Below are positions 4,376 to 61,555 of a DNA stretch of 64,000 nt, in pieces; within the stretch, counting starts at the first letter, position 1; each line of letters opens with the position of its first letter. The stretch is taken from sequence record OZ346205.1. One strand, written 5' to 3'. The notes under the pieces are model-generated. The model saw only the letters and a program-made list of their open reading frames with translations. It was not told the origin of the DNA and did not search any database. Made by a program: the position numbers and the translations under genes. The stretch comes from a phage.

Positions 4376-6799
4376 ATGAGTATGTGGTCTTTCGATTTTG
4401 AGTCATCCGGTTTGCTGGAAGACCCAGATCTTTATTATCACTGCGGTCTGTTTAAAGAGCTGAATAAGAACCGTTTTATGCTGTTCCTTCCTCTAAATGA
4501 CCGCACACACTACTCCGAGGAGGATATAGAAAAGGCTAAGAACTTCATTCTGTCAAAGAAAACTCTTTATAAAGATTTTGAAGTTCGCATAGCAGATTTT
4601 TCGGAGTTGGAAGGTTGGCTTACAGGCAATTCTGACTGGTCACCAACAGCTTTGAACTGCCATAACTGCTACAGTTATGACTTTATGCTAATGGAAAGAT
4701 TATCCGGTATTCATTTTGATATGTTCCGTGATCCTAAATGCATGGGGACTATCAACGACCACCAGGTTAACCTGTTTGATACGTTGGCTATGAGCCGAAT
4801 CTTGTGGCCTGATCGCCCTTTACCAAAAGGTTGTCCGGACGCTGTATTCAACCCGGTTACTAAGAAAATGCAACCTGTTGGTCCTCACGGCCTTATGGCA
4901 TGGGGCTACGCCCTTGGTAACCAGAAAGTTCAAATTGATGACTGGCGCGATCTTCCGTTGTGGAAGTATGTGGATCGTGTATTCGAGGACGTTATCATCC
5001 AGGAGCTGCTCTGGAAAGAGCTGGTAGCGGAATCAAAAGGTGTATTCTACGGCAAATCTGACATGCAGAACTTTATGTACGATCCAGCCAAAGAGAAGCC
5101 GAAAGGGTTCAAGAAGATCACCTGGAAGAACGCATTACGTCGAGGCATGCTGCAGCACTTCCTGATGGAGCTGCAGGCCCGTCAGGGTGTATACTTCGAC
5201 ATAGATGGAGCTATTGCTTTACGTGACCGTTGCGATGCGTGGATGAAAGAAATCGCTGATCGTGTTGAACCACAACTACCTTTAAAAGAGCTGTCAATGT
5301 CTCAGCGGCCCAAGTTCCCTGAAAAGCCGTTTAACCAAGACGGGACAATCTCTAATAATGGTTGGAAATGGTTAAAAGATAAGCTTGGCTATCCTGTAGA
5401 CATGAGTGCTTTAGAGTTCAAAGCCCCGCCTAAGCGAGCATTTACCTCTACAGGAGATGTCAGCAAGATGGGGATAAAATGGTGTGAAGAGATGGGCTGC
5501 AAAGACCCCGATAAGATGGCTGATTTCTTGAGAGGCTATATTAAGGGCACCTCCACACCACAACCCTTACCTAAAGAGCTGATGGATCAGGCAATAAGTG
5601 ATCTGCAGCAGAAGCGAATGCCTGACTGCAAGATACCTATGAAAATCAGCAATCAGGACGACATCAAGCGATACCTAATCAGTGCTGGTTGGCTCCCAAC
5701 AATGTGGAGAACTAAAGATGTAACTAAAGACAGCAAGAAGAAAGCTTTACCTGATGCAGATGTTGATGCACGAGTATATGCATATATGGACGAGCTTTTG
5801 GAGTCAGAGTATTGTGACCTAATTATCAACTTCTGGAACAAAACTGATGCTAAGTTCCAGACAACCGTGCACAAGTTCCGAAGCTTTCCTAACTCCGAAA
5901 GGATTAAAAAGGAAGTATTCGGGAAAATACGTAGAAAAGCCAGGGCACTTATTACTTCTCCGCAACTGAAAGATACGTTTGGACACCTATGCCCAAATCT
6001 TGAAAAATTGAACGGAGAGATGGCTAAAGATATCGTCTTGTGGTTATCATTGCGAAACCGCAGATCGGTCCTTGATCCAATCAAGGAGGATAAGGTTGAT
6101 ACTGGTCTTCTTAATCACCCACGTTTGAAGATTGACCATAAGCTTCCTGCTAAAAGCTCTGGATTAACAAACACTTCCAGACAGAAACACAGTATTTGTG
6201 CAAACATGCCTAAACCATCTCCTAAAGTGGTTATGGGTAAAGAGATGCGTAGTCTGTGGGGTGTTCCTCCGGGATACTTTGAGATCGGTATTGACGGGTC
6301 CAACTTAGAGCAGCTTATCGGGGCTTGGGGTGCCTTTGAGTTCGACAACGGCCTGTATTATGATGTTGTAAGTAACGGAGACGCACACCAAAACAATGCT
6401 GAGGCATATACAAAAGTGGCAGGCAGAGAGGTGTCCCGTAACGACGGTAAACCTATCACGTATGGGGTTATGTACGGGGCACAAAAAGATAAAGTTGCAG
6501 ATATGTTGGACATCTCCCCAGAGTTGGGACAAAGGGTAATCGATGCACTCTGGGATGCCAACCCAGGTCTTAAGGGGCGCAAAGAGGATCTGGAGAAATT
6601 CTGGGAAGCAACAGGTAAGAAGTTTATCTACTCTTTTGATGGTCATGCTATCTGGACCCGATCTAAACACTCTTTACTTAATGCATACCAACAAAATGGC
6701 GGTGCATCGTTGTGTGACTTAGTTGGAATACTCATGCACCACCAGATGGTGAAGCGTGGGTGGTACGATGAAGGTGTTCGTCGTATTATTTATTACCAT
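4376..6799 (+). CDS. DNA polymerase, family A (Pol I-like), exon 1
   Basis: 3'-5' exo motif FDFESSG; motif A IDGSNLEQ; motif B R..GKPITYGVMYG; frame ends ...RRIIYYH just before motif C. Confidence 0.8.
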
Positions 6800-7075
6800 A
6801 AATAACATTGTGGCTTCATAGAGTAATCTATGTCGAATAACCTCTTTAACTGCGGGAAGCCTAAACCTTATGGCAAGGTAATCCGCAACGAAGCGCTCAA
6901 AAGAGCGAACGCTCAGAGGCCATTCCGAAAGGAAGTAGACCAGCAAGTGCGGTCGAAATGGGAGGATTCCTGTGGTTGCTTATCATAGGAATATGAGATG
7001 GTCCGATCCTACGTGAAAACGTATGGCTATGCACGTAATGGTGCGGGGTAGCTTAACGACCTACCTGAACTATTG
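6800..7075 (+). mobile_element. group I intron (no ORF) splitting DNA polymerase motif C
   Basis: P-like ACTGCGGGAAGCC (6848), Q-like AATCCGCAACG (6880), S-like GAGATGGTCCG (6995); follows exonic U, ends in G; exon junction YYH|DE restores motif C. Confidence 0.65.
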
Positions 7076-13987: not shown

Positions 13988-14015
13988 TTGACATCTGAAA
14001 ACTGCGGTGTATAAT
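13988..14015 (+). promoter_or_regulatory. sigma70-like promoter
   Basis: TTGACA - 16 nt - TATAAT. Confidence 0.55.
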
Positions 14016-14046
14016 ATAAACATAAACTAGCAGAGAGTGATATATT

Positions 14047-14238
14047 ATGGTAATTTTTAATCGAGACGGTATCATAGTTAGACAGCACCCATTCCTTGAA
14101 TACTATCAAATTGAGCAATGGTGCTACGGGGATTGCAGTCACTCCTATGGGCAAAGTTGGGGATATCGCACAGTTTTTGAATCAACAGATCTTGATAAGG
14201 TAAGACAGAAAGTTTTAGAACTTATTAACAACAAGTGA
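14047..14238 (+). CDS. hypothetical protein
   Basis: ORF with GAGAGTGA upstream. Confidence 0.45.
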   Translation: MVIFNRDGIIVRQHPFLEYYQIEQWCYGDCSHSYGQSWGYRTVFESTDLDKVRQKVLELINNK

Positions 14239-14245
14239 GTATGAT

Positions 14246-14581
14246 ATGGTAACATTAGAAAGACGTAAAGCTATCGCCGCCACACTGGCAGACATCTTTT
14301 GGGAGTGCAATTTAAAAGATACCCGATATTGTGGCGCATCTGTAGATGCATTATTCCCACGGCCCACTATTGTTGCAATGGGAAACCTGTCAAACGTGGT
14401 GTATGGAGCATGGGACAAAGAAGGTGGATTTTATATCTGGCAACCTGACTACGGGACCTGGAAAGAGGTAAGGGGTGCGGATGACTTTGGGCCTGCAGTT
14501 GCCAAAACGATGGATGGCTGGAAAATCTATGTCGGTAACGACATGAAGCTGAAAGGCGAGATTGTTTACTGGTTACCTTAA
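14246..14581 (+). CDS. hypothetical protein
   Basis: ORF track; weak RBS. Confidence 0.45.
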   Translation: MVTLERRKAIAATLADIFWECNLKDTRYCGASVDALFPRPTIVAMGNLSNVVYGAWDKEGGFYIWQPDYGTWKEVRGADDFGPAVAKTMDGWKIYVGNDMKLKGEIVYWLP

Positions 14582-14602
14582 TAAAACGCAGGAGATAAAG
14601 TT

Positions 14603-14848
14603 ATGAACAAAGGGTGGACATTTGTAGACGGCGTTAAAAACATGCCTCTAGGAAAGTATATTGTAGCCATGGCAGATGAGAATGGCAAGGTGGATTTCGG
14701 AGTTTGCGAGGTTGTTCTTGCAGGATCTGGTGACTATGCTCACAAAACTGGGATAATTAACGGTCATTTCTACTTTGATTACAACCCTGTTGTGGCGTAT
14801 ATGGCTATGCCAGAGTTCGAGCTCCCAAAGGAGGGTGCGGATGTTTAA
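14603..14848 (+). CDS. hypothetical protein
   Basis: AGGAGA RBS. Confidence 0.5.
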   Translation: MNKGWTFVDGVKNMPLGKYIVAMADENGKVDFGVCEVVLAGSGDYAHKTGIINGHFYFDYNPVVAYMAMPEFELPKEGADV

Positions 14849-15038
14849 GCTTAAATCTGCATGGAACATCGCTGTGGGGGACGAGATCCGCATCCCAGGT
14901 GGAAAGACCATTATGAAGATATCTCGTATCGAGTACGAAGGTGATCGTGTATTTCATATCTTTGCAGAAGATGGTCGAGAAATTTATATACAGGCAGGCT
15001 CTCACATCTATATTCGTAAGAAAGGGGACGACAAATGA
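14841..15038 (+). CDS. hypothetical protein
   Basis: ORF 14775..15038; ATG 14841 after AAGGAGGG. Confidence 0.5.
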   Translation: MFKLKSAWNIAVGDEIRIPGGKTIMKISRIEYEGDRVFHIFAEDGREIYIQAGSHIYIRKKGDDK

Positions 15039-15364
15039 CAGAGATCATCATTTCAACTGCAGGGTATGTGTTCCTGACAATCATTGCACTGACCATTCTG
15101 GTGGTGGTATATGGAATTGTTATTCTCCCTATTCTTGAGACAATTAGTTTGTGTCGGTGTTGGAGAAAGGCTTACGGTCCACAGCCGTGGAAGGACTGGC
15201 CCCACCTGGTGCACATAGCGTTCTCTTATGCTTATGATCACGCCAGCAGTGCATGCATAACCGGGTATCACGCCCACAACTGGAGCTGGGAAGGGTTGAG
15301 GAAATGGAATGTTACAAAGACCATACCTCTGCGCATGTACAAACCTAAAAACAAAGACAGCTGA
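15035..15364 (+). CDS. membrane protein
   Basis: AAAGGGGA RBS; N-terminal hydrophobic helix. Confidence 0.55.
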   Translation: MTEIIISTAGYVFLTIIALTILVVVYGIVILPILETISLCRCWRKAYGPQPWKDWPHLVHIAFSYAYDHASSACITGYHAHNWSWEGLRKWNVTKTIPLRMYKPKNKDS

Positions 15365-15395
15365 TACTTGAAAATCCCTGGCATATCAAGTGTAA

Positions 15396-15433
15396 GGAGG
15401 ATTTCTAAAATGGATTTCCTCCTTTTGATATTT
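15396..15433 (+). terminator. rho-independent terminator
   Basis: GGAGGA ... TCCTCC stem followed by TTTTGATATTT. Confidence 0.5.
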
Positions 15434-15677
15434 CACCGGGCCAGATATTTTAAAATTCTTAGAAAATCAGAAAATGGATCGAAAACTAAAATGGATTTTT
15501 CAAGACAGGCACGATAAGATGTGCTGCTCATTCTATCGTTCGCACCGTACTTTAAGTCACTATTCCAGATTTTTCCGCACATACTCTCACCCTTCTACCA
15601 GAACTTTCCCAGCTTACCTCTGACCTTTTATAACAATAAGTCCATTATTATCAGAAAGTTTCGGCACATCTCTTTCG

Positions 15678-15872
15678 GTACTCGATCTGTTTTTCATTTC
15701 AAAGACCTGATTTTCTGAAAATTTTTCTCGATAAATTTCTTAGTACTCGATCTGTTTTTCATTTCAAAGACCTGATTTTCTGAAAATTTTTCTCGATAAA
15801 TTTCTTAGTACTCGATCTGTTTTTCGTTTTCTGAATCGGATTTTCTGGAAATCGTTCCAGCTCTCGACCTGA
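15678..15872. repeat. tandem direct repeat, 65-bp unit x3 (third copy divergent)
   Basis: GTACTCGATCTGTTTTTCATTTCAAAGACCTGATTTTCTGAAAATTTTTCTCGATAAATTTCTTA repeated at 15678, 15743, 15808. Confidence 0.8.
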
Positions 15873-16030
15873 AATTTTTGGGGACGAAATCGATTTTTCG
15901 TTTTCAGAAATGGATTTTTAAAATTTCTATATGGGAATATTTTATGGGATACTGTTTTATAGGAAATTGTTACGGAGGGTAATTAGCATGCTAATTAAAT
16001 TTATTAAATGCGAGGAGTTCTCATTTAGAA

Positions 16031-16260
16031 TTTTGAATGATAATCATTCTCGTTTGCAGAATAACGGGCAGGCCCGGTGATTGTCTCCCGGCCCCTACTG
16101 CCCCGGCTTGTTATTATAGTATCACACAGGACAAAGAAAGCAAGGATTTTTTGCATAAATTTTTAAATGATAATGATAACCGTTCTCATTTTATGCAGCG
16201 CCCATCCCCGGTGGTTGTCTCCCCCGTCACCGGTGCCTGCCGTCCTTTCGATAGGTATAT
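16031..16260. repeat. twin GC-rich hairpin elements with conserved loop
   Basis: Two copies (about 16031-16110 and 16160-16260) share AATGATAAT ... GCAG ... CCGGTG(A/G)TTGTCTCCC ... CTGCC, each a long GC stem. Confidence 0.5.
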
Positions 16261-16446
16261 CGTGCCACCTGGCGGGGCCGCTGTCAACACTTTTCAAAAA
16301 ATTTTTCTAACCTGATGCGCTAACCGCTGCAACCTGGCGGGGTCAGCCTGGCAGGACCTAACTGACCGGGTAGGAGAGAATGAAGGCTTGTAAACCTGGT
16401 GGGCCTATGCTACAGGATAGGTAACAATTGAAGAGGAGGTACAAAA

Positions 16447-16614
16447 ATGAAAGGTAATATGATCCCCCTAGAAAATGTAGCTATTAATGACGCTGAGGCT
16501 ATCGCCCTGGTTGAAAAGGCTATGGCGGGAGCGTTGGAACATAAAGAAGAGTACGAAAAATGGTGGTTAACCTGGCGGGGGCGGCAGGTGGATTCTATCA
16601 TAAAAATAATTTAA
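16447..16614 (+). CDS. small protein (55 aa)
   Basis: Below the 60-aa track cut-off; GAGGAGG 7 nt before ATG. Confidence 0.45.
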   Translation: MKGNMIPLENVAINDAEAIALVEKAMAGALEHKEEYEKWWLTWRGRQVDSIIKII

Positions 16615-16700
16615 AATAGTCGTTGACAACAAGGTTAATCATGGTATTATTACCCTACAAGGTGAACAACACCGCACTAACCAGTAAAGAGGATAAATTT

Positions 16701-16898
16701 ATGAACGCATACGGGATCAAAGTACGTCGCAACACTCGCCAGGTGGTCACCAATCAAGTGATTTGCCGGGTGGATGTAACCATCAACAACGGGCAAGGCC
16801 TTTATAAATTTCGTCGCGGTCATAGCTATACCCTGCAACAGCTTAATCGTTGCGCCCTGACAAAAGGTCAGATCAACCATTGGTTTAATAAAAAATAA
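16701..16898 (+). CDS. hypothetical protein
   Basis: ORF 16623..16898; ATG 16701 after AAAGAGGA; upstream promoter TTGACA/TATTAT. Confidence 0.5.
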   Translation: MNAYGIKVRRNTRQVVTNQVICRVDVTINNGQGLYKFRRGHSYTLQQLNRCALTKGQINHWFNKK

Positions 16899-16962
16899 GT
16901 ATTGACATACAGTCCGACACCAAATACACTAAAAGCACAAAAGACACTAAGAGGATAAAATC

Positions 16963-17361
16963 ATGAAAACCACTACCTTTAATTTTGATAATGCAGACTT
17001 TTCTTTTTCTGATGTCAAGAACTGCCGCCGTGATCGTGGATTTTACAAGGCTTATAATCTGGTGGGCCTGGACGATGACAATAATTTGCACGAAGTAGCT
17101 GAGATCCGGTATTATGCCGCCGCCAGCGGTAACACTAACTACTGCGTTTTTTGGATACACGACAACAAGAACAATAAGTACGGTTATACTGGTGGCAAGG
17201 CGAGCGGTCACGGTTACGATAAAGCTAATGCAGCACTTGAGAGCGCATTAAATGCTATGGGGATCACTGCCAACGGCTGGATCTATGAAGAAGAGTTTTT
17301 GTCGGCACTTGCTGACCACCTGGGCTATAAAAAGCACATTGTAACATGCGCCCACGAATAA
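16963..17361 (+). CDS. hypothetical protein
   Basis: AAGAGGA RBS; promoter TTGACA-N17-TACACT upstream. Confidence 0.55.
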   Translation: MKTTTFNFDNADFSFSDVKNCRRDRGFYKAYNLVGLDDDNNLHEVAEIRYYAAASGNTNYCVFWIHDNKNNKYGYTGGKASGHGYDKANAALESALNAMGITANGWIYEEEFLSALADHLGYKKHIVTCAHE

Positions 17362-17367
17362 AAATTG

Positions 17368-17395
17368 TTGACACGCTGCAAAATTCAAGTAAACT
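17368..17395 (+). promoter_or_regulatory. sigma70-like promoter
   Basis: TTGACA - 16 nt - TAAACT. Confidence 0.5.
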
Positions 17396-17405
17396 AGTCA
17401 CAAAA

Positions 17406-17424
17406 GGCGGGAATGTTTCCCGCC
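17406..17424 (+). promoter_or_regulatory. 5' leader hairpin (conserved leader architecture)
   Basis: GGCGGGAA-TGT-TTCCCGCC just after predicted TSS, then AACACAAAGGAAAAAGATC-ATG. Confidence 0.45.
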
Positions 17425-17443
17425 AACACAAAGGAAAAAGATC

Positions 17444-17848
17444 ATGAATAAGAACGTACGCCGCATCATGAACGAACTGGCAAACGATGAAAAAATTATT
17501 GACATGCATTTGATCAACATTTGCCGCCGTTGTGTAACATACAACAACCGCGCCGCAAAAGCGCGTGAGATGAACGCAAAAGGCACCTTAAAGCCATTCC
17601 AGGTGGTGGTAAAGGCCATTAAAGATGTAACTAATACGGCAAACCAGGTACAGGGGAACACCAACGAGAGTACCAATATTGATCCGGCTTACATCATGAA
17701 ACGGATCCGGACCTGCAAGAACAAAGAGCAAGTGTATAATGTCATAGACTGGTTGGATTCTATGGGCGATGTGGTGTACAATAGATTCTCGGCAGCTATT
17801 GAGATCCAGCTTGACAGGTTAGACGGTAAAGTACTTAAAACTTACTAA
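17444..17848 (+). CDS. hypothetical protein
   Basis: AAAGGA RBS. Confidence 0.55.
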   Translation: MNKNVRRIMNELANDEKIIDMHLINICRRCVTYNNRAAKAREMNAKGTLKPFQVVVKAIKDVTNTANQVQGNTNESTNIDPAYIMKRIRTCKNKEQVYNVIDWLDSMGDVVYNRFSAAIEIQLDRLDGKVLKTY

Positions 17849-17859
17849 ATTTATTTTTA

Positions 17860-17883
17860 GATGGCCTTGACTCCAGGGCCATC
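17860..17883. repeat. palindromic element GATGGCC-N10-GGCCATC (copy 1)
   Basis: Directly after stop codon; loop holds TTGACT; followed by AATAAAGTAAAT. Confidence 0.6.
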
Positions 17884-17928
17884 AATAAAGTAAATTAATC
17901 TCAGCTAAGCGAAAAAGGGGGCTTTAAG

Positions 17929-18048
17929 ATGAGCACTACACGCCAATACACAAAGGTAACTATTATCGCCTGCGTTGTCGGTTACATCCTGGCGCAAATG
18001 TTAATGAGTAGCGCTAACAGTTTTGCAAAATTTTTCTTAAATTTTTAA
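17929..18048 (+). CDS. small hydrophobic protein (39 aa)
   Basis: AAAAGGGGG RBS 7 nt before ATG; predicted single TM segment. Confidence 0.4.
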   Translation: MSTTRQYTKVTIIACVVGYILAQMLMSSANSFAKFFLNF

Positions 18049-18076
18049 TTGACAAGCTAACTTAGATTGATATACT
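18049..18076 (+). promoter_or_regulatory. sigma70-like promoter
   Basis: TTGACA - 16 nt - TATACT. Confidence 0.55.
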
Positions 18077-18127
18077 TAAACACGTAAACGGGAAAACTTC
18101 CCAGAACACACAAAAGGAGAAAACACC

Positions 18128-18469
18128 ATGACTACTATGGCCGCCGCAGAAAAAGCTATTCAGATCGCCGCACTGAAAAAACAGATCGCAGACCTTGAGA
18201 ACAAGATCGATAACTTTGAAATCGACGAGGACAAGTACGACGAAAACTATGATGAATGGTTAGACGAGATCTACGGCGAAATTATGATCGGAAACATTTC
18301 TTTTCTTCCGTCGCGTATCCTCAAGGAGCTAGATCCTATCGCTTACCGCTGCGGATTTAGCGACTACATCGACAGCCTGGATATTGAGGACGATGAAGAA
18401 TACCAGGAATTACAGACAGAGTTAGAAGAAGCAAAAGAAGAGCTTGCAGAACTGGAAGAAAACGAGTAA
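18128..18469 (+). CDS. hypothetical acidic protein
   Basis: AAAGGAGA RBS; leader hairpin GGGAA-AAC-TTCCC at 18090. Confidence 0.55.
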   Translation: MTTMAAAEKAIQIAALKKQIADLENKIDNFEIDEDKYDENYDEWLDEIYGEIMIGNISFLPSRILKELDPIAYRCGFSDYIDSLDIEDDEEYQELQTELEEAKEELAELEENE

Positions 18470-18480
18470 GATTATTTTTA

Positions 18481-18504
18481 GATGGCCTTGACTCCAGGGC
18501 CATC
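18481..18504. repeat. palindromic element GATGGCC-N10-GGCCATC (copy 2)
   Basis: Same sequence as copy 1, directly after stop of 18128..18469. Confidence 0.6.
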
Positions 18505-18558
18505 AATAAAGTAAACTTTATACTGTTAACACTGAACTAATGCATAGGAGTTAAAACC

Positions 18559-18804
18559 ATGGCAGCACTAATCACCAAATATTATGCCCCTACCAACACC
18601 AAAAGCGCCCGTATCATGGTAAAAGGCTTCGGACGTAAAAAGGTGTACACCTGGGATTATGCCTTAGACACGGAAGACAACTACACCAACGCGATGACCG
18701 ATTTTATTAATGATCTGAACACGCGGATCTTGACAAATTATAAAATTACCGATATTGCCTATATAGGGGAAGGCGGGATCTGTTTTGTCGGTATCGTCAA
18801 ATAA
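18559..18804 (+). CDS. hypothetical protein
   Basis: TAGGAG RBS. Confidence 0.5.
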   Translation: MAALITKYYAPTNTKSARIMVKGFGRKKVYTWDYALDTEDNYTNAMTDFINDLNTRILTNYKITDIAYIGEGGICFVGIVK

Positions 18805-18879
18805 GCTGTTTTTTCGGTGGTCCTGGTAGCAGGGCCATCTATAAAGATAGTTTATCAATACAATGAAAGGAGAAAGTAC

Positions 18880-19233
18880 ATGATCAGCGGGGCAAGTTTT
18901 ATTATTGGCGCTATTGCTACGGCTTTAATTGTAAACAAGATCCAATCTAAAAACGAAAAAGATAGCAACGCCCTTACAGAATACCCGTTTTGGGTATTCA
19001 ACGACAATGAAGACTATATTATCAAGTACAAGAATGAGAAGGGCGACCAGGTAACACCGCGACCGATCCCGGCTTACAAGATGCAAGAAACACTATACCG
19101 CCTAAAGGCTGGAGGCGCAAAAATCGTAGACTTTTGGGGATACGATCACACAGATCAGGAAGTTATAAAGCGCCGTATCCGGGCTATTCAGGCCAATATT
19201 GAAGTTAGCAAGGGGGGAATATATGAAGATTAA
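18880..19233 (+). CDS. membrane-anchored protein
   Basis: ORF 18817..19233; ATG 18880 after AAAGGAGAAAG; N-terminal TM helix. Confidence 0.5.
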   Translation: MISGASFIIGAIATALIVNKIQSKNEKDSNALTEYPFWVFNDNEDYIIKYKNEKGDQVTPRPIPAYKMQETLYRLKAGGAKIVDFWGYDHTDQEVIKRRIRAIQANIEVSKGGIYED

Positions 19234-19420
19234 TTTTGAGAAGATTGTAAAGCGATCTCATGCTTCCGAAGAGCTGCCGGAACGCCGCCAGCGCAACAAT
19301 AAACTGAATAAGCCAAAAAGATTTGGGAAGATCTGGCGGAATCATTATGATCGCAAATTACCGGGCCTGCTTTTGGAACGTGAACGACAGGCGGAACGAT
19401 ACCGCCACAAAGGCAAATAA
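19223..19420 (+). CDS. hypothetical basic protein
   Basis: ORF 19199..19420; ATG 19223 after AAGGGGGG. Confidence 0.45.
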   Translation: MKINFEKIVKRSHASEELPERRQRNNKLNKPKRFGKIWRNHYDRKLPGLLLERERQAERYRHKGK

Positions 19421-19428
19421 CAACCAAC

Positions 19429-19456
19429 GCCCCGCCATTGTGCGGGGCTTTTTATT
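19429..19456 (+). terminator. rho-independent terminator
   Basis: GCCCCGC-CATTGT-GCGGGGC followed by TTTTTATTT. Confidence 0.65.
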
Positions 19457-19601
19457 TCTATCCTACGAATAGCGCCCCTGGTTGGCCCTGTAAGCGCCAA
19501 AAAGGCCCCACCTATGCAATCGCCCACCTTTAACCTGAAAACATCGCTTAGGGCCGTTTTATGGCGTTAAAAATATCATTGACAGTGATTTTATTTAAAG
19601 C

Positions 19602-19629
19602 TTGACATCTTAAACAGGTTAGCTATACT
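19602..19629 (+). promoter_or_regulatory. sigma70-like promoter
   Basis: TTGACA - 16 nt - TATACT. Confidence 0.5.
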
Positions 19630-19663
19630 AACCACATCAAAGAGAGAGAAAGGAGTAAACGCC

Positions 19664-19924
19664 ATGCGTAAATTAAAAAATTTTGATAAAGTTGATGTTG
19701 TCCTGAATAATTTTTACTACTGCAACAACAAGGCCATTTGGTGGCGTGATAGTTCCACCGATAAAGTCAAGGCGCGCTTTCTCCAGGGGCACTGGCAAGG
19801 CCGCCCAGTGATTAAAATCATGGGGCAATTGGTAGCGTTTAAAAATTGCCGCCGTGTTGATGACGTTGAAGAGATCTTGAATATTTTACGCCACAATAAT
19901 TTAAAAAATAGTGTTGACAAGTAA
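19664..19924 (+). CDS. hypothetical protein
   Basis: AAAGGAG RBS. Confidence 0.55.
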   Translation: MRKLKNFDKVDVVLNNFYYCNNKAIWWRDSSTDKVKARFLQGHWQGRPVIKIMGQLVAFKNCRRVDDVEEILNILRHNNLKNSVDK

Positions 19925-19941
19925 ATCTCAATAAGTATACT
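19914..19941 (+). promoter_or_regulatory. sigma70-like promoter
   Basis: TTGACA - 16 nt - TATACT, overlapping 3' end of upstream gene. Confidence 0.5.
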
Positions 19942-19951
19942 TAAGCACACA

Positions 19952-19970
19952 GGCGGGAAGTTTTCCCGCC
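19952..19970 (+). promoter_or_regulatory. 5' leader hairpin
   Basis: GGCGGGAA-GTT-TTCCCGCC (same arms as 17406) then ACTAACAAAGAAAATAGGAG. Confidence 0.45.
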
Positions 19971-19998
19971 ACTAACAAAGAAAATAGGAGAAAATATC

Positions 19999-20622
19999 AT
20001 GACCACCGTTAACATTACCACAGGTTGCAATTTATCTTTCGACGTGCTGACCGACGAACAAAAAGAAAAAGCTGTTGAAATGGTCCGCGAAAGAGAAGAA
20101 CACAGCGGGGATAACTTTTTTGCAGAAAGTGTAATTGAATACTATAAAGAATATGTTTTTCCAGAGTACGGGCTTGAAGATACCAAGGTACAGTGGTCCG
20201 GCTTTTGGTGTCAAGGCGACGGCGCATCAATTAGCGCTGAAAATGTAAACTTAGAAAAATTCTTGCGTAAGGTTAAAGCGCTTACAAAATTTCGCTCAAT
20301 TAGACACTTGTTCGGCACAATGCACGATGGCGAACTATCAGCCAGCGTTGAACGTATCCCGTTTAGCCATTATCATCACGAAAACACAATAGGCGGGTGC
20401 ATCGATACCAACTGGCTAGACCTGACCACCAAGCAAGAGGATAAAATTGAAGAGCTGGAAGAGCTGATCACCGAGACGGTACGGGAGCTATCCCGCAAGG
20501 TTTACGTAGACCTGGAGCAGGCCTATCTTGAACAATTCACTACCGAAAACCTGATCGGCCTTATCGAGGCCAATGATTGGCGGTTTGATGTGGATGAGTA
20601 TGGCGAGATGACTTTTTCATAA
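19999..20622 (+). CDS. hypothetical acidic protein
   Basis: TAGGAGA RBS; 207 aa. Confidence 0.55.
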   Translation: MTTVNITTGCNLSFDVLTDEQKEKAVEMVREREEHSGDNFFAESVIEYYKEYVFPEYGLEDTKVQWSGFWCQGDGASISAENVNLEKFLRKVKALTKFRSIRHLFGTMHDGELSASVERIPFSHYHHENTIGGCIDTNWLDLTTKQEDKIEELEELITETVRELSRKVYVDLEQAYLEQFTTENLIGLIEANDWRFDVDEYGEMTFS

Positions 20623-20630
20623 ATAAAGTG

Positions 20631-20658
20631 TTGCAATAACCTAAAAACCTGCTATATT
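20631..20658 (+). promoter_or_regulatory. sigma70-like promoter
   Basis: TTGCAA - 16 nt - TATATT; leader hairpin GGGGCAA...TTGCCCC at 20668. Confidence 0.45.
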
Positions 20659-20711
20659 AAAACTCAAGGGGCAAGACGTTTGCCCCCACACAAAACAAAG
20701 AGGAAAACATC

Positions 20712-21092
20712 ATGAAAAACACTACTAAAGCTATTGACACCGTTATGTTTAACCTGGTTACCTTTCGCGAGGATATGAAAGATCTTCCACGTGAAACAGT
20801 GTGCGATCACATTGAAAACTATCGCAAACTAATCAAAGAGTTGCCTTTAAAACGTGACCAGTATGCGGCTAACGCCATGCTTAATGCCATGATCAAAAAG
20901 ATGATTCAGTGTGATTTAACTCTGGCCTATGACTATGCGGGTGGTCGTTTTGCAGTATACAATCAGCCCGTGCCCGGTATGGGCACCACCGAAGAATTGC
21001 ACGCGCTCAATCTAAAACAAGACGTATGGGATAACATGCCCCGCGTGGTGGTGTGGGCAGAAAGCGGAAAGATTTACGGCGATAATTTTTAA
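20712..21092 (+). CDS. hypothetical protein
   Basis: AAAGAGGA RBS. Confidence 0.55.
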   Translation: MKNTTKAIDTVMFNLVTFREDMKDLPRETVCDHIENYRKLIKELPLKRDQYAANAMLNAMIKKMIQCDLTLAYDYAGGRFAVYNQPVPGMGTTEELHALNLKQDVWDNMPRVVVWAESGKIYGDNF

Positions 21093-57852: not shown

Positions 57853-58203
57853 ATGAAAGATGGGGATAAGCTGCTATATCTTAAAGTCCCCCTTGAAATA
57901 CTGTCTATGTCAAAAGTTTTGAATGACACAACTGGTGAGGTTGTTGTTCTTGACTTATATGACAAGATCGTATACTGCTACCTGCACAACTGGTATAAGC
58001 TTGGAGGAAATTCACGCTTCACGCCCAGCACAAGGAAAATTGCAGCAGATATTGGGATAAAGAAAACAAAAGCAGCAGCGTGCGTTAAAACTTTAGAATG
58101 TGCAGGAGTGGTTGAAATATCCACGCAAGGGAGAGGTAAAAGATGCACATTTTCCAAAGTTTTGCCACCAGAAGAAGTTATTCGAATGTCAACAACTGGT
58201 TAG
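57853..58203 (+). CDS. putative winged-helix DNA-binding protein
   Basis: HTH-like STRKIAADIGIKKTKAAACVKTLE; immediately upstream of a palindromic iteron array. Confidence 0.4.
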   Translation: MKDGDKLLYLKVPLEILSMSKVLNDTTGEVVVLDLYDKIVYCYLHNWYKLGGNSRFTPSTRKIAADIGIKKTKAAACVKTLECAGVVEISTQGRGKRCTFSKVLPPEEVIRMSTTG

Positions 58204-58277
58204 ACCAGTAAAAACTTAAATATCTGTACTATAAGGATTCGTATGTTTTATGTTCACTCTGGAACAGAGGTTAGTAA

Positions 58278-58360
58278 CTGTCCGTGATACGGACACTACT
58301 GTCCGTCACGCGGACACATCTGTCCGTAATACGGACACTAACTGTCCGTGATACGGACAC
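58278..58360. repeat. iteron array: 4 tandem palindromes TGTCCGT-N5-ACGGACA
   Basis: Copies start at 58278, 58299, 58320, 58342 (21-22 bp period); followed by an A/T-rich stretch and further inverted repeats to about 58470. Confidence 0.8.
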
Positions 58361-58499
58361 ATAAAGAATATAACTAAAATAACTAAATAATAAAAAAAAT
58401 AAAAGATCTAGTACTTATGGTACTAAGTACATATACTTAACTTATGTAGAATATACTAGATCCTAAGTACCATGTTTTAAATTTATTACTTACTATAGG

Positions 58500-58790
58500 T
58501 AGTGTCGGCCCTTCATTGGCACTCGCCTACGAGGGGGCGAGATGCCGGGCCTCCTTGGTGCACACAATAACAGAAGTGCATACATGAAGGTCTGTTAACA
58601 TGTGTGGGAGCGAAGCGATAGCGCAGGCCAAAGGCCGAGCACTGATGTGGACCACCGACGAAAGCTTGCCAGCGCCGTAAGGAGTCGGTTGAGAGTCTCC
58701 CGCGCGAGCTTGGATGAAGTTTATGTGTGGAAACGGACAAGAAGGCCCCTAAATCGCTCCACAGCTATATAAACTATACCAGGTAAGGCA
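58500..58790 (+). other. GC-rich structured non-coding island (candidate ncRNA or leader)
   Basis: No credible ORF; nested inverted repeats, e.g. CCTTCAT/ATGAAGG, GGCACTCGCC/GGCGAGATGCC, GGGAGCGA/TCGCTCC. Confidence 0.3.
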
Positions 58791-58866
58791 ATCGCACCAG
58801 TTTGATAGAAAAGCTCGTTACAAAGCGATACAGTGAGTTTTTCTATAACTTGAAGAGGAGGCAGCT

Positions 58867-60742: not shown

Positions 60743-60817
60743 GCCCTGTTAGCTTAGTGGATAAAGCAGCGGCCTTCTAAGCCGTTGACACTGGTTCGAG
60801 TCCAGTACGGGGTGCCA
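60743..60817 (+). tRNA. tRNA-Arg (anticodon UCU)
   Basis: Cloverleaf by eye: acceptor GCCCTGT/ACGGGGT, anticodon loop CTTCTAA, T-loop TTCGAGT, encoded CCA. Confidence 0.8.
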
Positions 60818-60821
60818 AATT

Positions 60822-60908
60822 GGGGAGTTATCCCGTAGAGGTAGCGGTGTAGACTGTAAATCTATTGTCATTGCGACTCGGGTGGTTCGACTCCACCACT
60901 CCCCACCA
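60822..60908 (+). tRNA. tRNA-Tyr (anticodon GUA)
   Basis: Acceptor GGGGAGT/ACTCCCC, anticodon loop CTGTAAA, long variable arm, T-loop TTCGACT, CCA. Confidence 0.75.
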
Positions 60909-61022
60909 AATTTATATTTTTAGATGCATAAATAATACAGATAATGGCATTGATATTTATCGTCGTTTATACTAGTCACTAACTGCTCGAAAATCAGTGT
61001 CATTATCAGTATAATTTATAAA

Positions 61023-61113
61023 GGAGGGTAGGGAGCAATGGTGCTCAAGCGGTATTGAAAACCGTCCCGTTGAGGATGACTCGATGATGGTTCGATTCCA
61101 TTACTCTCCGCCA
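61023..61113 (+). tRNA. tRNA-Ser (anticodon UGA)
   Basis: Acceptor GGAGGGT/ACTCTCC, anticodon loop ATTGAAA, long variable arm, T-loop TTCGATT, CCA. Confidence 0.65.
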
Positions 61114-61211
61114 CATTGTTGACCTTGTAATTAAGCGAAAGCCGGAAGCAGAACCGGATTATCAAATGTTACAGTCGTCATCGCCGACTAGCAACATGGT
61201 CAACATACTGA

Positions 61212-61310
61212 GCTAGGTAAGCCCTTTGGCAAGGGCGAGGATTTTTAATCCTGAAAATAGACGAGGTAGTCGTTGAATACATAGGTGGTTCGATTCCATC
61301 ACCTAGCACC
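61212..61310 (+). tRNA. atypical tRNA-like gene (99 nt; anticodon loop TTTTTAA, UUU?)
   Basis: Acceptor GCTAGGT/ACCTAGC, D-arm GCCC...GGGC, T-arm GGTGG-TTCGATT-CCATC, but 30-nt extra region and imperfect anticodon stem. Confidence 0.4.
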
Positions 61311-61315
61311 TTTTT

Positions 61316-61391
61316 GCTGATGTAGCACAATCGGTAGTGCAATTGATTTGTAATCAATAGGTTGTAGGTTCAAGTCCTGCCATCAGCACCA
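61316..61391 (+). tRNA. tRNA-Thr (anticodon UGU)
   Basis: Acceptor GCTGATG/CATCAGC, anticodon arm ATTGA-TTTGTAA-TCAAT, CCA. Confidence 0.8.
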
Positions 61392-61392
61392 A

Positions 61393-61467
61393 GGCCCTGT
61401 AGCTGGAAGGTTCAAGCAAGCGACTCATAATCGCCAGACGGTGGTTCAATTCCACCCAGGGCCACCA
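61393..61467 (+). tRNA. tRNA-Met (anticodon CAU; could be Ile-lysidine type)
   Basis: Acceptor GGCCCTG/CAGGGCC, anticodon loop CTCATAA, T-loop TTCAATT, CCA. Confidence 0.75.
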
Positions 61468-61478
61468 AATAGTAAATA

Positions 61479-61555
61479 CTCCGCGTAGCTCAGCTTGGTA
61501 GAGCGCCTGATTTGGGATCAGGAGGTCGAGTGTTCGAATCACTCCGTGGAGACCA
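61479..61555 (+). tRNA. tRNA-Pro (anticodon UGG)
   Basis: Acceptor CTCCGCG/CGTGGAG, D-arm GCTC...GAGC, anticodon arm CCTGA-TTTGGGA-TCAGG, T-loop TTCGAAT, CCA. Confidence 0.8.

Follow-up and report, generated by a model that had tools for sequence, protein, structure and literature searches.

A non-coding island with Fur-box-like palindromes in an rV5-like coliphage

What does a kilobase of gene-free DNA do in a lytic phage? The question is raised by the island at positions 15434–16446 of a 64,000-nt stretch of phage DNA (record OZ346205.1; the whole stretch is called the window below, and coordinates refer to it unless a relative is named). The best match to the region is Escherichia phage EdH4 (92.7% identity over 1.4 kb; 122 phage records matched), the close matches are all Vequintavirus, i.e. 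rV5-like myoviruses of ~137 kb, and the window is assigned by sequence to this genus as an rV5-like coliphage. A preliminary description, made from the letters alone, had listed repeats and hairpins in the island and suggested an origin, a packaging site, a protein-binding array or small RNA genes. The answer proposed here, to which we give a probability of roughly 0.36, is that the host regulator Fur gates an early non-coding transcription cassette, duplicated in this genus and attached to an array of putative protein-binding repeats, through which a strictly lytic phage would read or manipulate host iron status. That the island is a functional non-coding regulatory region with leftward promoters is held with much higher confidence than this mechanism. 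A literature search returned no study of the island or of Fur boxes in lytic phages.

Coding status and conservation of the island

The island is non-coding. Short open reading frames (ORFs) annotated in it differ among GenBank records; an ORF of 92 amino acids (aa) at 16037–16315 has no ribosome-binding site (RBS), and its frame is disrupted in EdH4 (1-nt indel) and in AlexBoehm (134-nt deletion); and the ORF at 15474–15623 is frameshifted in 9/9 relatives. Coding potential was ruled out by these frame-breaking indels together with the inconsistent annotation. All the repeats and hairpins listed earlier for this gene-free stretch are present, at most 1 nt from where they had been placed.

Conservation, cassette anatomy and box statistics were read directly from the window aligned with nine close relatives and from the loci of the distant relatives UP17, KpS8, CR3, SSE121, CB7, 4MG, W70 and F1M1E. 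Among the close relatives the island is a mosaic: 15402–15500 is nearly invariant, with hardly a substitution in the nine; the next 170 nt (15501–15672) vary freely; 15743–16300 is highly conserved; and 16300–16446 has several indels. AlexBoehm/Bas56 lacks 16081–16214, through recombination between two strings shared by the hairpins, and a single hybrid unit therefore suffices for a viable phage. In distant phages, sensitive blastn finds only 16033–16091 (box plus core) kept, at 80–88% identity, in phi92-like phages, Klebsiella and Proteus Mydovirus, Cronobacter and Pectobacterium Certrevirus, Seunavirus and W70. Beyond Vequintavirus the left half can no longer be recognised. A gene-free gap of 0.7–1.3 kb lies at the same place in all the distant loci named above, with a shared order of modules: GATATTTG boxes, then gatttc/gaaatc-rich DNA, then about three repeats of 58–78 nt, followed by one to five palindromic boxes, core plus GC hairpin, and further GC-rich elements. 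Position and architecture are thus kept across genera, which points to a functional element; by these alignments the island is a control region kept across at least seven phage genera and not junk.

A host-derived island was ruled out: blastn gave no match in 5,426 E. coli genomes, and the exact pattern, scanned against 185,579 species genomes, turned up only twice, both times by chance. A first pattern used on IMG/VR was too short and returned mostly chance matches.

Duplicated cassettes and candidate Fur boxes

The cassette is present twice, at 16007–16144 and 16166–16310. Each copy would consist of a leftward sigma70 early promoter, a GC-rich hairpin leader, in which the conserved string GGGAGACAAYCACCGG is carried, and one or two Fur-like boxes. 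The preliminary description had noticed the hairpins and overlooked the palindromes just left, and the leftward promoters just right, of each. The parts are as follows (strand given where one applies).

16007–16054: candidate operator boxes of unit 1; a weak one at 16007–16025 and a strong one, AATGATAATCATTCTCGTT, at 16036–16054, 29 bp apart.
16059–16104: conserved core and GC hairpin 1; core GAATAACGGGCAGGCCCGGTGATTGTCTC; all lineages keep the left 30 nt as sequence, with a variable right arm.
16110–16144, minus strand: predicted leftward sigma70 promoter P1; -35 TTGCTT (16144–16139), 16-nt spacer, TG-extended -10 TACTAT (16122–16117).
16166–16190: candidate operator boxes of unit 2; overlapping 19-mers 16166–16184 and 16172–16190, offset by 6 nt.
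16195–16240: GC hairpin 2, paralogue of hairpin 1, sharing CCCGGTGGTTGTCTCCC.
16259–16310, minus strand: predicted leftward promoter P2'; A/T-rich upstream tract, -35 TTGACA (16287–16282), 17-nt spacer GCGGCCCCGCCAGGTGG, TGG-CACGAT.

The boxes are 19-bp palindromes, AATGA(T/G)AAT-n-ATT(C/A)TCATT, of 9-1-9 geometry. Compared with AATGATAATnATTATCATT, which we take to be the gamma-proteobacterial Fur consensus, the strong box of unit 1 has 2 mismatches and the unit 2 boxes at 16166 and 16172 have 3 each; matches with at most 3 mismatches number 3 in the 64 kb vs 0.05 expected, all inside the island. In unit 2, GATAATGATAACCGTTCTC (16169) agrees with the classical Fur 19-mer GATAATGATAATCATTATC at 16/19 positions, and the boxes presumably resemble the aerobactin operator. 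One to five boxes per lineage are found in nine lineages, with almost none outside the islands; the box of 4MG is a perfect copy, AATGATAATCATTATCATT, and boxes with 1 mismatch occur in UP17, KpS8 and CB7. Spacings of 29 and 6 nt recur among the relatives, the 6-nt offsets lying at 16166/16172 in the window, 2477/2483 and 2535/2541 in UP17 and 2484/2490 in F1M1E; a degenerate palindrome pattern adds 16030/16036 in the window, 2469/2475 in CR3, 2531/2537 in KpS8 and 2469/2475 in CB7. In E. coli the smallest Fur site is 19 bp long (9-1-9), and where sites overlap they lie exactly 6 (or 3) bp apart (PMC2189734). The palindromes thus have the sequence and spacing of Fur boxes (19-bp 9-1-9 units, 6-bp overlap), and the protein-binding array suggested earlier finds its counterpart in island arrays that resemble protein-binding sites.

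Half-site asymmetries are kept box by box across lineages, and the boxes are therefore taken to be sites in DNA rather than hairpins in RNA. From genus to genus the box sequence stays the same beside neighbouring iterons that change (CTCGATCG, CTTGAGAG and others), which fits a conserved host factor. A phage-encoded Fur was ruled out, tblastn giving no match to a Fur homologue in the window. Taken together, the box evidence favours host Fur as the putative ligand.

The palindromes might instead be operators of a phage-encoded regulator, e.g. an early shut-off repressor closing the leftward early promoters, with the likeness to Fur boxes coincidental; we regard this as rather unlikely. Two to four palindromes at an exact spacing of 29 bp are typical of phage operator or iteron arrays, asymmetric box identities are kept across genera (e.g. 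ATTCGCATT in the third box of CR3, CB7, F1M1E and UP17), and in some relatives the minus strand of the island holds a small helix-turn-helix (HTH)-like or DUF7170 gene. A consistent link to a regulator gene is missing, however; there is none at the island of the window, and the flanking proteins have no assigned function. Coevolving operators should moreover drift as the iterons do, whereas the boxes hold the host Fur consensus, the 9-1-9 geometry and the 6-bp overlaps, and the cassette also occurs in a contig without shared proteins over the stretch compared.

Additional cassettes were seen away from the island. Mydovirus-like contigs and 4MG carry a second box/core/promoter cassette ~7.3 kb off and in opposite orientation to the main one; it is co-directional with the genes and lies upstream of a Phage_30_8 (PF06019) gene (L042 4300–4420; L137 4960–5080; L157 6950–7100; L156 1230–1350), the genes flanking this second locus being all of no assigned function. 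In a 347-kb IMG/VR contig (L131 1200–1420), a pair of inverted box-plus-core cassettes sits between genes that share a strand, one being a DUF932 gene; no protein of this contig is shared with the window in the 4 kb compared.

Under the Fur proposal, host Fur-Fe2+ on the boxes would block elongation and so gate a non-coding transcript; transcription through the AT-rich stretch and the 65-nt array further left would depend on host iron status, or free Fur. Promoter activity, Fur binding and the direction and consequence of regulation are what we infer from the sequence. P1 has its putative start near 16110, and its positional equivalents in 11 lineages have a diverged spacer and always A at -11 and T at -7. 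The -10 hexamer of P2' reads CACGAT here and CACAAT in nine relatives; its spacer is homologous to the W70 P2 spacer ACGGCCCCGCCAGGGGGC. Equivalents of P1 and P2 occur in every lineage, with hexamers kept in kind (TTGCTT, TTGCAA, TTGATC, TTGACC; TAnnnT) and spacers diverged. The promoter scan reports two TTGCAA-17-TATATT sites in KpS8, TTGACA-17-TATACT (11/12) in UP17 and, as the sole promoter-like site of the Gotham island, TTGACA-17-CACAAT with TG (10/12). A general promoter class TCAT-N5-GAATRRC was not found elsewhere in the window. The leftward promoters appear to fit the early-promoter consensus published for Certrevirus with phage CB7 (PMC7344957). P1 and P2' point against the flanking genes and would read through the hairpin leader into the boxes; because no ORF lies downstream of these promoters, the island is probably transcribed into non-coding RNA.

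Upstream of the P1 -35 by 4–5 nt, a direct repeat GTAAA-N5-GTAAA, which we take to be the CpxR consensus, is seen in nine relatives (L003–L008, L010, L134 and L136; e.g. L004 2638–2652, minus strand) and is absent from the window.

The boxes overlap a second promoter-like site, TTGAAT-N18-CAGAAT, which is weak and rightward, and in an alternative form of the Fur proposal it is this promoter that Fur would repress. Carried further, the regulated transcript would itself run rightwards, which seems to us unlikely: the proximal box would overlap a Fur-repressed promoter (-35 TTGAAT, 18-nt spacer, -10 CAGAAT; start near 16069), and the iron-starvation-induced RNA made from it, starting with the hairpin, would serve as a small RNA or as a long structured 5' leader for the early genes from 16447. 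The proximal box, and it alone, is always preceded by TTG (TTGAATGA) and followed by nnGAAT at a fixed distance, in 6-nt register; the geometry is the usual one for Fur repression, 83% of E. coli Fur clusters overlapping sigma70 promoters (PMC2189734); KpS8 and UP17 have a terminator-like plus-strand hairpin (CGCCGTGGGGTGGCG, T-rich tail) ~190 nt downstream; and the 55-aa gene beyond the island is without a strong promoter of its own. The match is, however, only 8/12 and not reported by the scan, and no plus-strand terminator follows the hairpins in the window. Two further observations count equally against the alternative form of the Fur proposal: no such promoter is recognisable in unit 2, and A is missing at -11 in several lineages (CTGAAT, CGGAAT, TGGAAT), among them Mydovirus, the Pectobacterium phages, the contigs L131 and L133, and the second-locus copies.

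The two GC-rich hairpins are related, as had been described: their shared strings (CCCGGTGATTGTCTCCC at 16073–16089; CCCGGTGGTTGTCTCCC at 16207–16223) are 94% identical over 17 nt, and both fold, with z of -1.0 to -2.4. The conserved feature is a 30-nt primary sequence, with the consensus GAATrrCrGGCAssnnnGGTGwTTGTCTC, and the core of one contig is without any hairpin partner. By eye, the outer stem shows some A-U pairs exchanged for G-C. Folded singly, the sequences of most lineages do not surpass their shuffles, and a hairpin conserved through covariation was rejected on this ground and on the RNAalifold result given below. A known RNA family was ruled out: Rfam 15 (including ToxI, C4, riboswitches and ribozymes) gave no island match at gathering scores in the window, with noise only at E up to 10, and no match on the islands of seven relatives. 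As to the small RNA genes suggested earlier, there are predicted promoters without a downstream ORF, and probably a non-coding transcript; a terminator, an Rfam match and a consensus fold are lacking.

Several points weigh against the Fur proposal. P1 scores 8/12 and P2' has a -10 hexamer of 3/6, both falling below the scan threshold in the window. Folding is slightly better on the minus strand, with modest z (-0.6 to -2.4); RNAalifold across lineages gives no consensus structure; and no terminator follows either hairpin in the window, so none bounds a small RNA. The literature search yielded no transcriptome of this group. Relative to the putative starts of the leftward promoters, the boxes are at about +57 to +87, and they overlap only the weak rightward promoter-like site, and in E. 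coli the Fur clusters sited between promoter and start codon repress weakly (PMC2189734).

Left half, repeats and edges of the island

The remaining features of the island are as follows.

15385–15429, plus strand: intrinsic terminator; hairpin AAGGAGGA...TCCTCCTT, then TTTGATATTT; closes the upstream gene block.
15425–15500: near-invariant A/T-rich block; GATATTT boxes at 15427 and 15444, GAAAATC, AAAATGGAT motifs.
15501–15672: variable spacer; close relatives differ in it by ~20–25% substitutions and a 1-nt indel; weakly constrained and non-coding.
15678–15918: ~65-nt repeat array, each unit headed by GTACTCGATCT.
15900–16035: AT-rich spacer, 65–78% A+T, between the repeats and the operator boxes.
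16320–16375: diverged relic of the 'RNA2' block of other genera, carrying ACCTGGCGGGG copy 2 (16332–16342).
16388–16416, plus strand: weak rightward promoter-like site, TTGTAA-N17-TACAGG, its spacer being the variant ACCTGGTGGG; upstream of the first post-island gene.
16433–16614, plus strand: RBS and 55-aa ORF (phrog_21957), closing the island; ACCTGGCGGGG copy 4 (16570–16580) is read as codons.

Both edges are as first described. On the left, the upstream ORF stops at 15364, and the terminator hairpin with its T-run has a folding energy of -17.6 kcal/mol (z -3.8; 0/200 shuffles as stable), the first AAAATGGAT sitting in its loop; on the right, the RBS reads GAGGAGG and the 55-aa ORF starts with ATG at 16447. 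The flanking genes are on the plus strand and encode small proteins with no function assigned. Over 14000–21000 of the window, GC skew is ~0.13–0.18 to the left of the island and drops to ~0.04 on its right, AT skew going up from ~0.03 to ~0.17, with gene orientation unchanged; the island divides two gene blocks of unlike composition. Two other features of the window may be recorded: a group I intron (Rfam RF00028, 64.7 bits) at 6790–7025, within the left-hand gene block, and seven clustered tRNA genes at 60743–61555, one of which (61212–61310) is unusual in its length of 99 nt, in a four-base anticodon by ARAGORN and in an Rfam score of only 35.5 bits.

In the near-invariant left block, the repeated AAAATGGAT of the preliminary description stands as exact copies at 15407, 15471 and 15488; the copy at 15908 is only AAATGGAT, and the count is not significant alone (3 exact copies vs 1.16 expected; 13/100 shuffles reach 3). 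GATATTTG boxes occupy the equivalent left edge in UP17, CR3, SSE121, KpS8, CB7, W70 and 4MG, of other genera.

All three tandem 65-bp repeats noted at 15678–15872 are present, only two of them exact (15678–15742 and 15743–15807); the third (15808–15872) is 68% identical, and a fourth, degenerate copy runs to 15918. The first exact unit is missing from 9/9 relatives, and the extra copy is therefore taken as a recent slippage duplication in this phage. At the equivalent position, Mydovirus, Seunavirus and Certrevirus have three CTCGATCG-headed repeats of 58–78 nt; the head is CTCGATCG in four genera and CTTGAGAG in W70. By this comparison the 65-nt repeats are conserved iteron-like arrays, and together with the GATATTT/AAAATGGAT block they may be site arrays for a second DNA-binding partner. 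As a separate observation, TCGATAAATT, which we take to be a high-affinity H-NS nucleation motif, occurs exactly at 15728–15737 and 15793–15802 only in the 64-kb window, inside the two exact units.

By analogy with the pseudo-ToxI of phiTE, the leftward transcript could itself be the product, an RNA decoy or anti-defence RNA with 65-nt units evolving by slippage, which we hold to be very improbable. The rV5-like phage phiTE escapes ToxIN abortive infection by expanding a tandem non-coding repeat (PMC3475682), a precedent matched here by repeats downstream of two early promoters and by the extra, perfectly identical 65-nt copy that this phage alone has. The pseudo-ToxI locus of CB7 and phiTE is, however, ~65 kb from their island; ToxI and the rest of Rfam gave no match at E up to 10; and the repeat head changes between genera as a DNA-binding site would. 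Type III antitoxin units are ~34–45 nt, much shorter than the 65-nt unit. The phiTE/CB7 pseudo-ToxI locus was rejected as a different one, blastn with ToxI matching CB7 at 141138 and not at the CB7 island (75473). A two-unit ToxI query found matches outside genes in 80 phage records; these span many genera, among them phages of Klebsiella, Salmonella, Escherichia, Pectobacterium and Vibrio, which suggests that pseudo-ToxI-like loci are widespread.

A headful packaging (pac) site recognised by the small terminase, one of the functions first suggested for the island, is highly improbable as the role of the repeats. Pac sites are often arrays of phased repeats, that of P1 containing GATC; the repeat heads here contain GATC too. 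Genomes of the group are circularly permuted with terminal redundancy, and transduction by phiTE is on record (PMC3606486, PMC3475682). Yet GATC (Dam) sites are not enriched in the island and are missing from the W70 repeats; the island lies in an early small-gene region, not beside late genes; and it has no tie to a terminase gene, which was not located in the window.

The origin suggested earlier was not supported either. As a secondary or transcription-activated origin, comparable to that of T7 or to oriF/oriG of T4, the island would offer the 65-nt repeats as iterons, the AT-rich segment as unwinding element and the leftward RNA as primer or R-loop; we judge this very unlikely. The repeats, a segment of 65–78% AT and gene-less tandem promoters do adjoin, GC skew steps from ~0.13–0.18 to ~0.04 across the island, and the authors of the rV5 genome were unable to locate an origin by skew (PMC3606486). 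The step is nevertheless in the wrong direction, no initiator gene lies beside the island, and DnaA boxes, integration host factor (IHF) sites and 13-mers are absent from 15380–16460. A full initiator/iteron/AT-rich module is found elsewhere, at 57853–58480, and on this ground, and for want of the DnaA, IHF and 13-mer sites, the origin reading of the island was dropped. The parts of the module are:

57853–58203: initiator gene, 116-aa HTH_36 protein, phrog_12838 'replication initiation protein'.
58277–58360: four 21-nt palindromic iterons, ACTGTCCGTGATACGGACACT, after the initiator gene.

Beyond the iterons, ~120 nt are visibly very AT-rich, followed by ~350 nt of GC-rich DNA with few ORFs and no Rfam match (to 58860). 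The module is conserved in 119 Vequintavirus records, and 57853–58860 is the probable replication origin. The region called 'non-coding' in the rV5 paper (rV5 104013–106618; PMC3606486) was set aside as a different locus, the corresponding part of the window being packed with ORFs.

The recurring ACCTGGCGGGG was correctly reported, with exact copies at 16267, 16332, 16570 and 23455 and the variant ACCTGGTGGG at 16394; exact copies on the plus strand number 4 vs 0.39 expected, and 0/100 shuffles reach 4. Most of these are explained by their surroundings. Copy 1 (16267–16277) is the P2' spacer read on the opposite strand. Copy 2 aligns with a hairpin arm of the 'RNA2' block, which other genera place behind P2, window CAACCTGGCGGGGTCAGCCTGGCA aligning with W70 CAACCTGGCGGCGATGCCTGGTA; the intact block is absent from the window, which has no CCGGCGAT, and 16320–16375 has indels of 21–45 nt among close relatives. 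The site at 16388–16416, with the variant as its spacer, has the same geometry as TTGACC-N17-CACAAT before the first gene of CR3; deletions have removed part of it in Gotham, EduardKellenberger and slur16. Copy 5 (23455) follows a stop codon and forms a hairpin. The copies thus appear to be mostly by-products of duplicated promoter/hairpin modules and not independent signals, and no evidence was seen for an independent function of ACCTGGCGGGG.

In other genera a near-consensus leftward promoter is followed by a strongly conserved block, CTACCGGCGATCCACCTTCC...GTTAGCCCCGCCTTTTCGCCGTGGGGTGGCG, of which the window holds a relic only; the block lies ~150–250 nt right of the proximal box (L003–L010; e.g. 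L006 2640–2735). By eye, exchanges of CCCC/GGGG to CCAA/TTGG suggest a pseudoknot-like fold; the block has no Rfam match.

Implications and comparison with known systems

Lytic phages are usually assumed to follow a fixed programme, host sensing being studied mainly in temperate phages. A broader form of the Fur proposal, which we consider doubtful, is that a whole clade of strictly virulent enterobacterial phages, the Vequintavirinae together with the phi92-like phages, wires host regulators (through Fur boxes in every lineage and, in most genera, a CpxR-type site at the P1 -35) into an early non-coding RNA locus. If so, the phage may sense both iron and the envelope state of a newly entered cell; alternatively, hundreds of amplified Fur-box arrays may titrate Fur, derepressing iron uptake and the Fur-controlled ribonucleotide reductase. 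A conserved cassette with the operator of the host iron repressor beside early promoters would offer a concrete, readily testable example of virulent phages that read or rewire the metal homeostasis of their host, and this in seven or more genera with types in therapeutic use (rV5, PVP-SE1-like, CR3-like and phi92-like). In practice, the analysis marks 'hypothetical protein' calls in over 100 GenBank records as spurious, gives phage engineering a non-coding region that is dispensable or duplicable, and sets the island apart from the origin candidate at 58 kb.

Compared with the Fur-regulated promoters of Enterobacteria (iucA, ryhB, fhuF), the island has the same 19-bp geometry, consensus (2–3 mismatches in the window) and 6-bp overlaps, and likewise clusters its sites beside (predicted) sigma70 promoters. 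It differs in that its boxes belong to a strictly lytic phage, in gene-free DNA and at 29-bp intervals; in that they lie downstream of the best-supported promoters, not over them; and in that they are always coupled to a 30-nt core without a host counterpart.

The phiTE pseudo-ToxI (PMC3475682) is likewise a non-coding tandem repeat that expands by slippage, the window showing a recent expansion by one unit, and on the phiTE side the repeat is expressed during infection; its unit is 36 nt against 65 nt here, and there is no similarity in sequence or by covariance model.

The lambda origin has four 19-bp repeats of dyad symmetry, an AT-rich region and a palindrome, to which the up to four 19-bp palindromes, the AT-rich segment and the imperfect GC-rich palindrome of the island bear a likeness; unlike it, the island has no adjoining initiator gene, a different module order, and boxes agreeing with the consensus of a repressor of the host.

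Face-to-face or antisense promoter switches are found in coliphage 186 (pR/pL) and in lambda (oop). There strong promoters oppose the neighbouring genes and yield untranslated RNA, as is proposed for the island, and the convergent weak promoter of the island may overlap the hairpin; here, in contrast, there is no lysis-lysogeny decision and no antisense target gene within ~700 nt, and the operator type would be that of a metalloregulator of the host.

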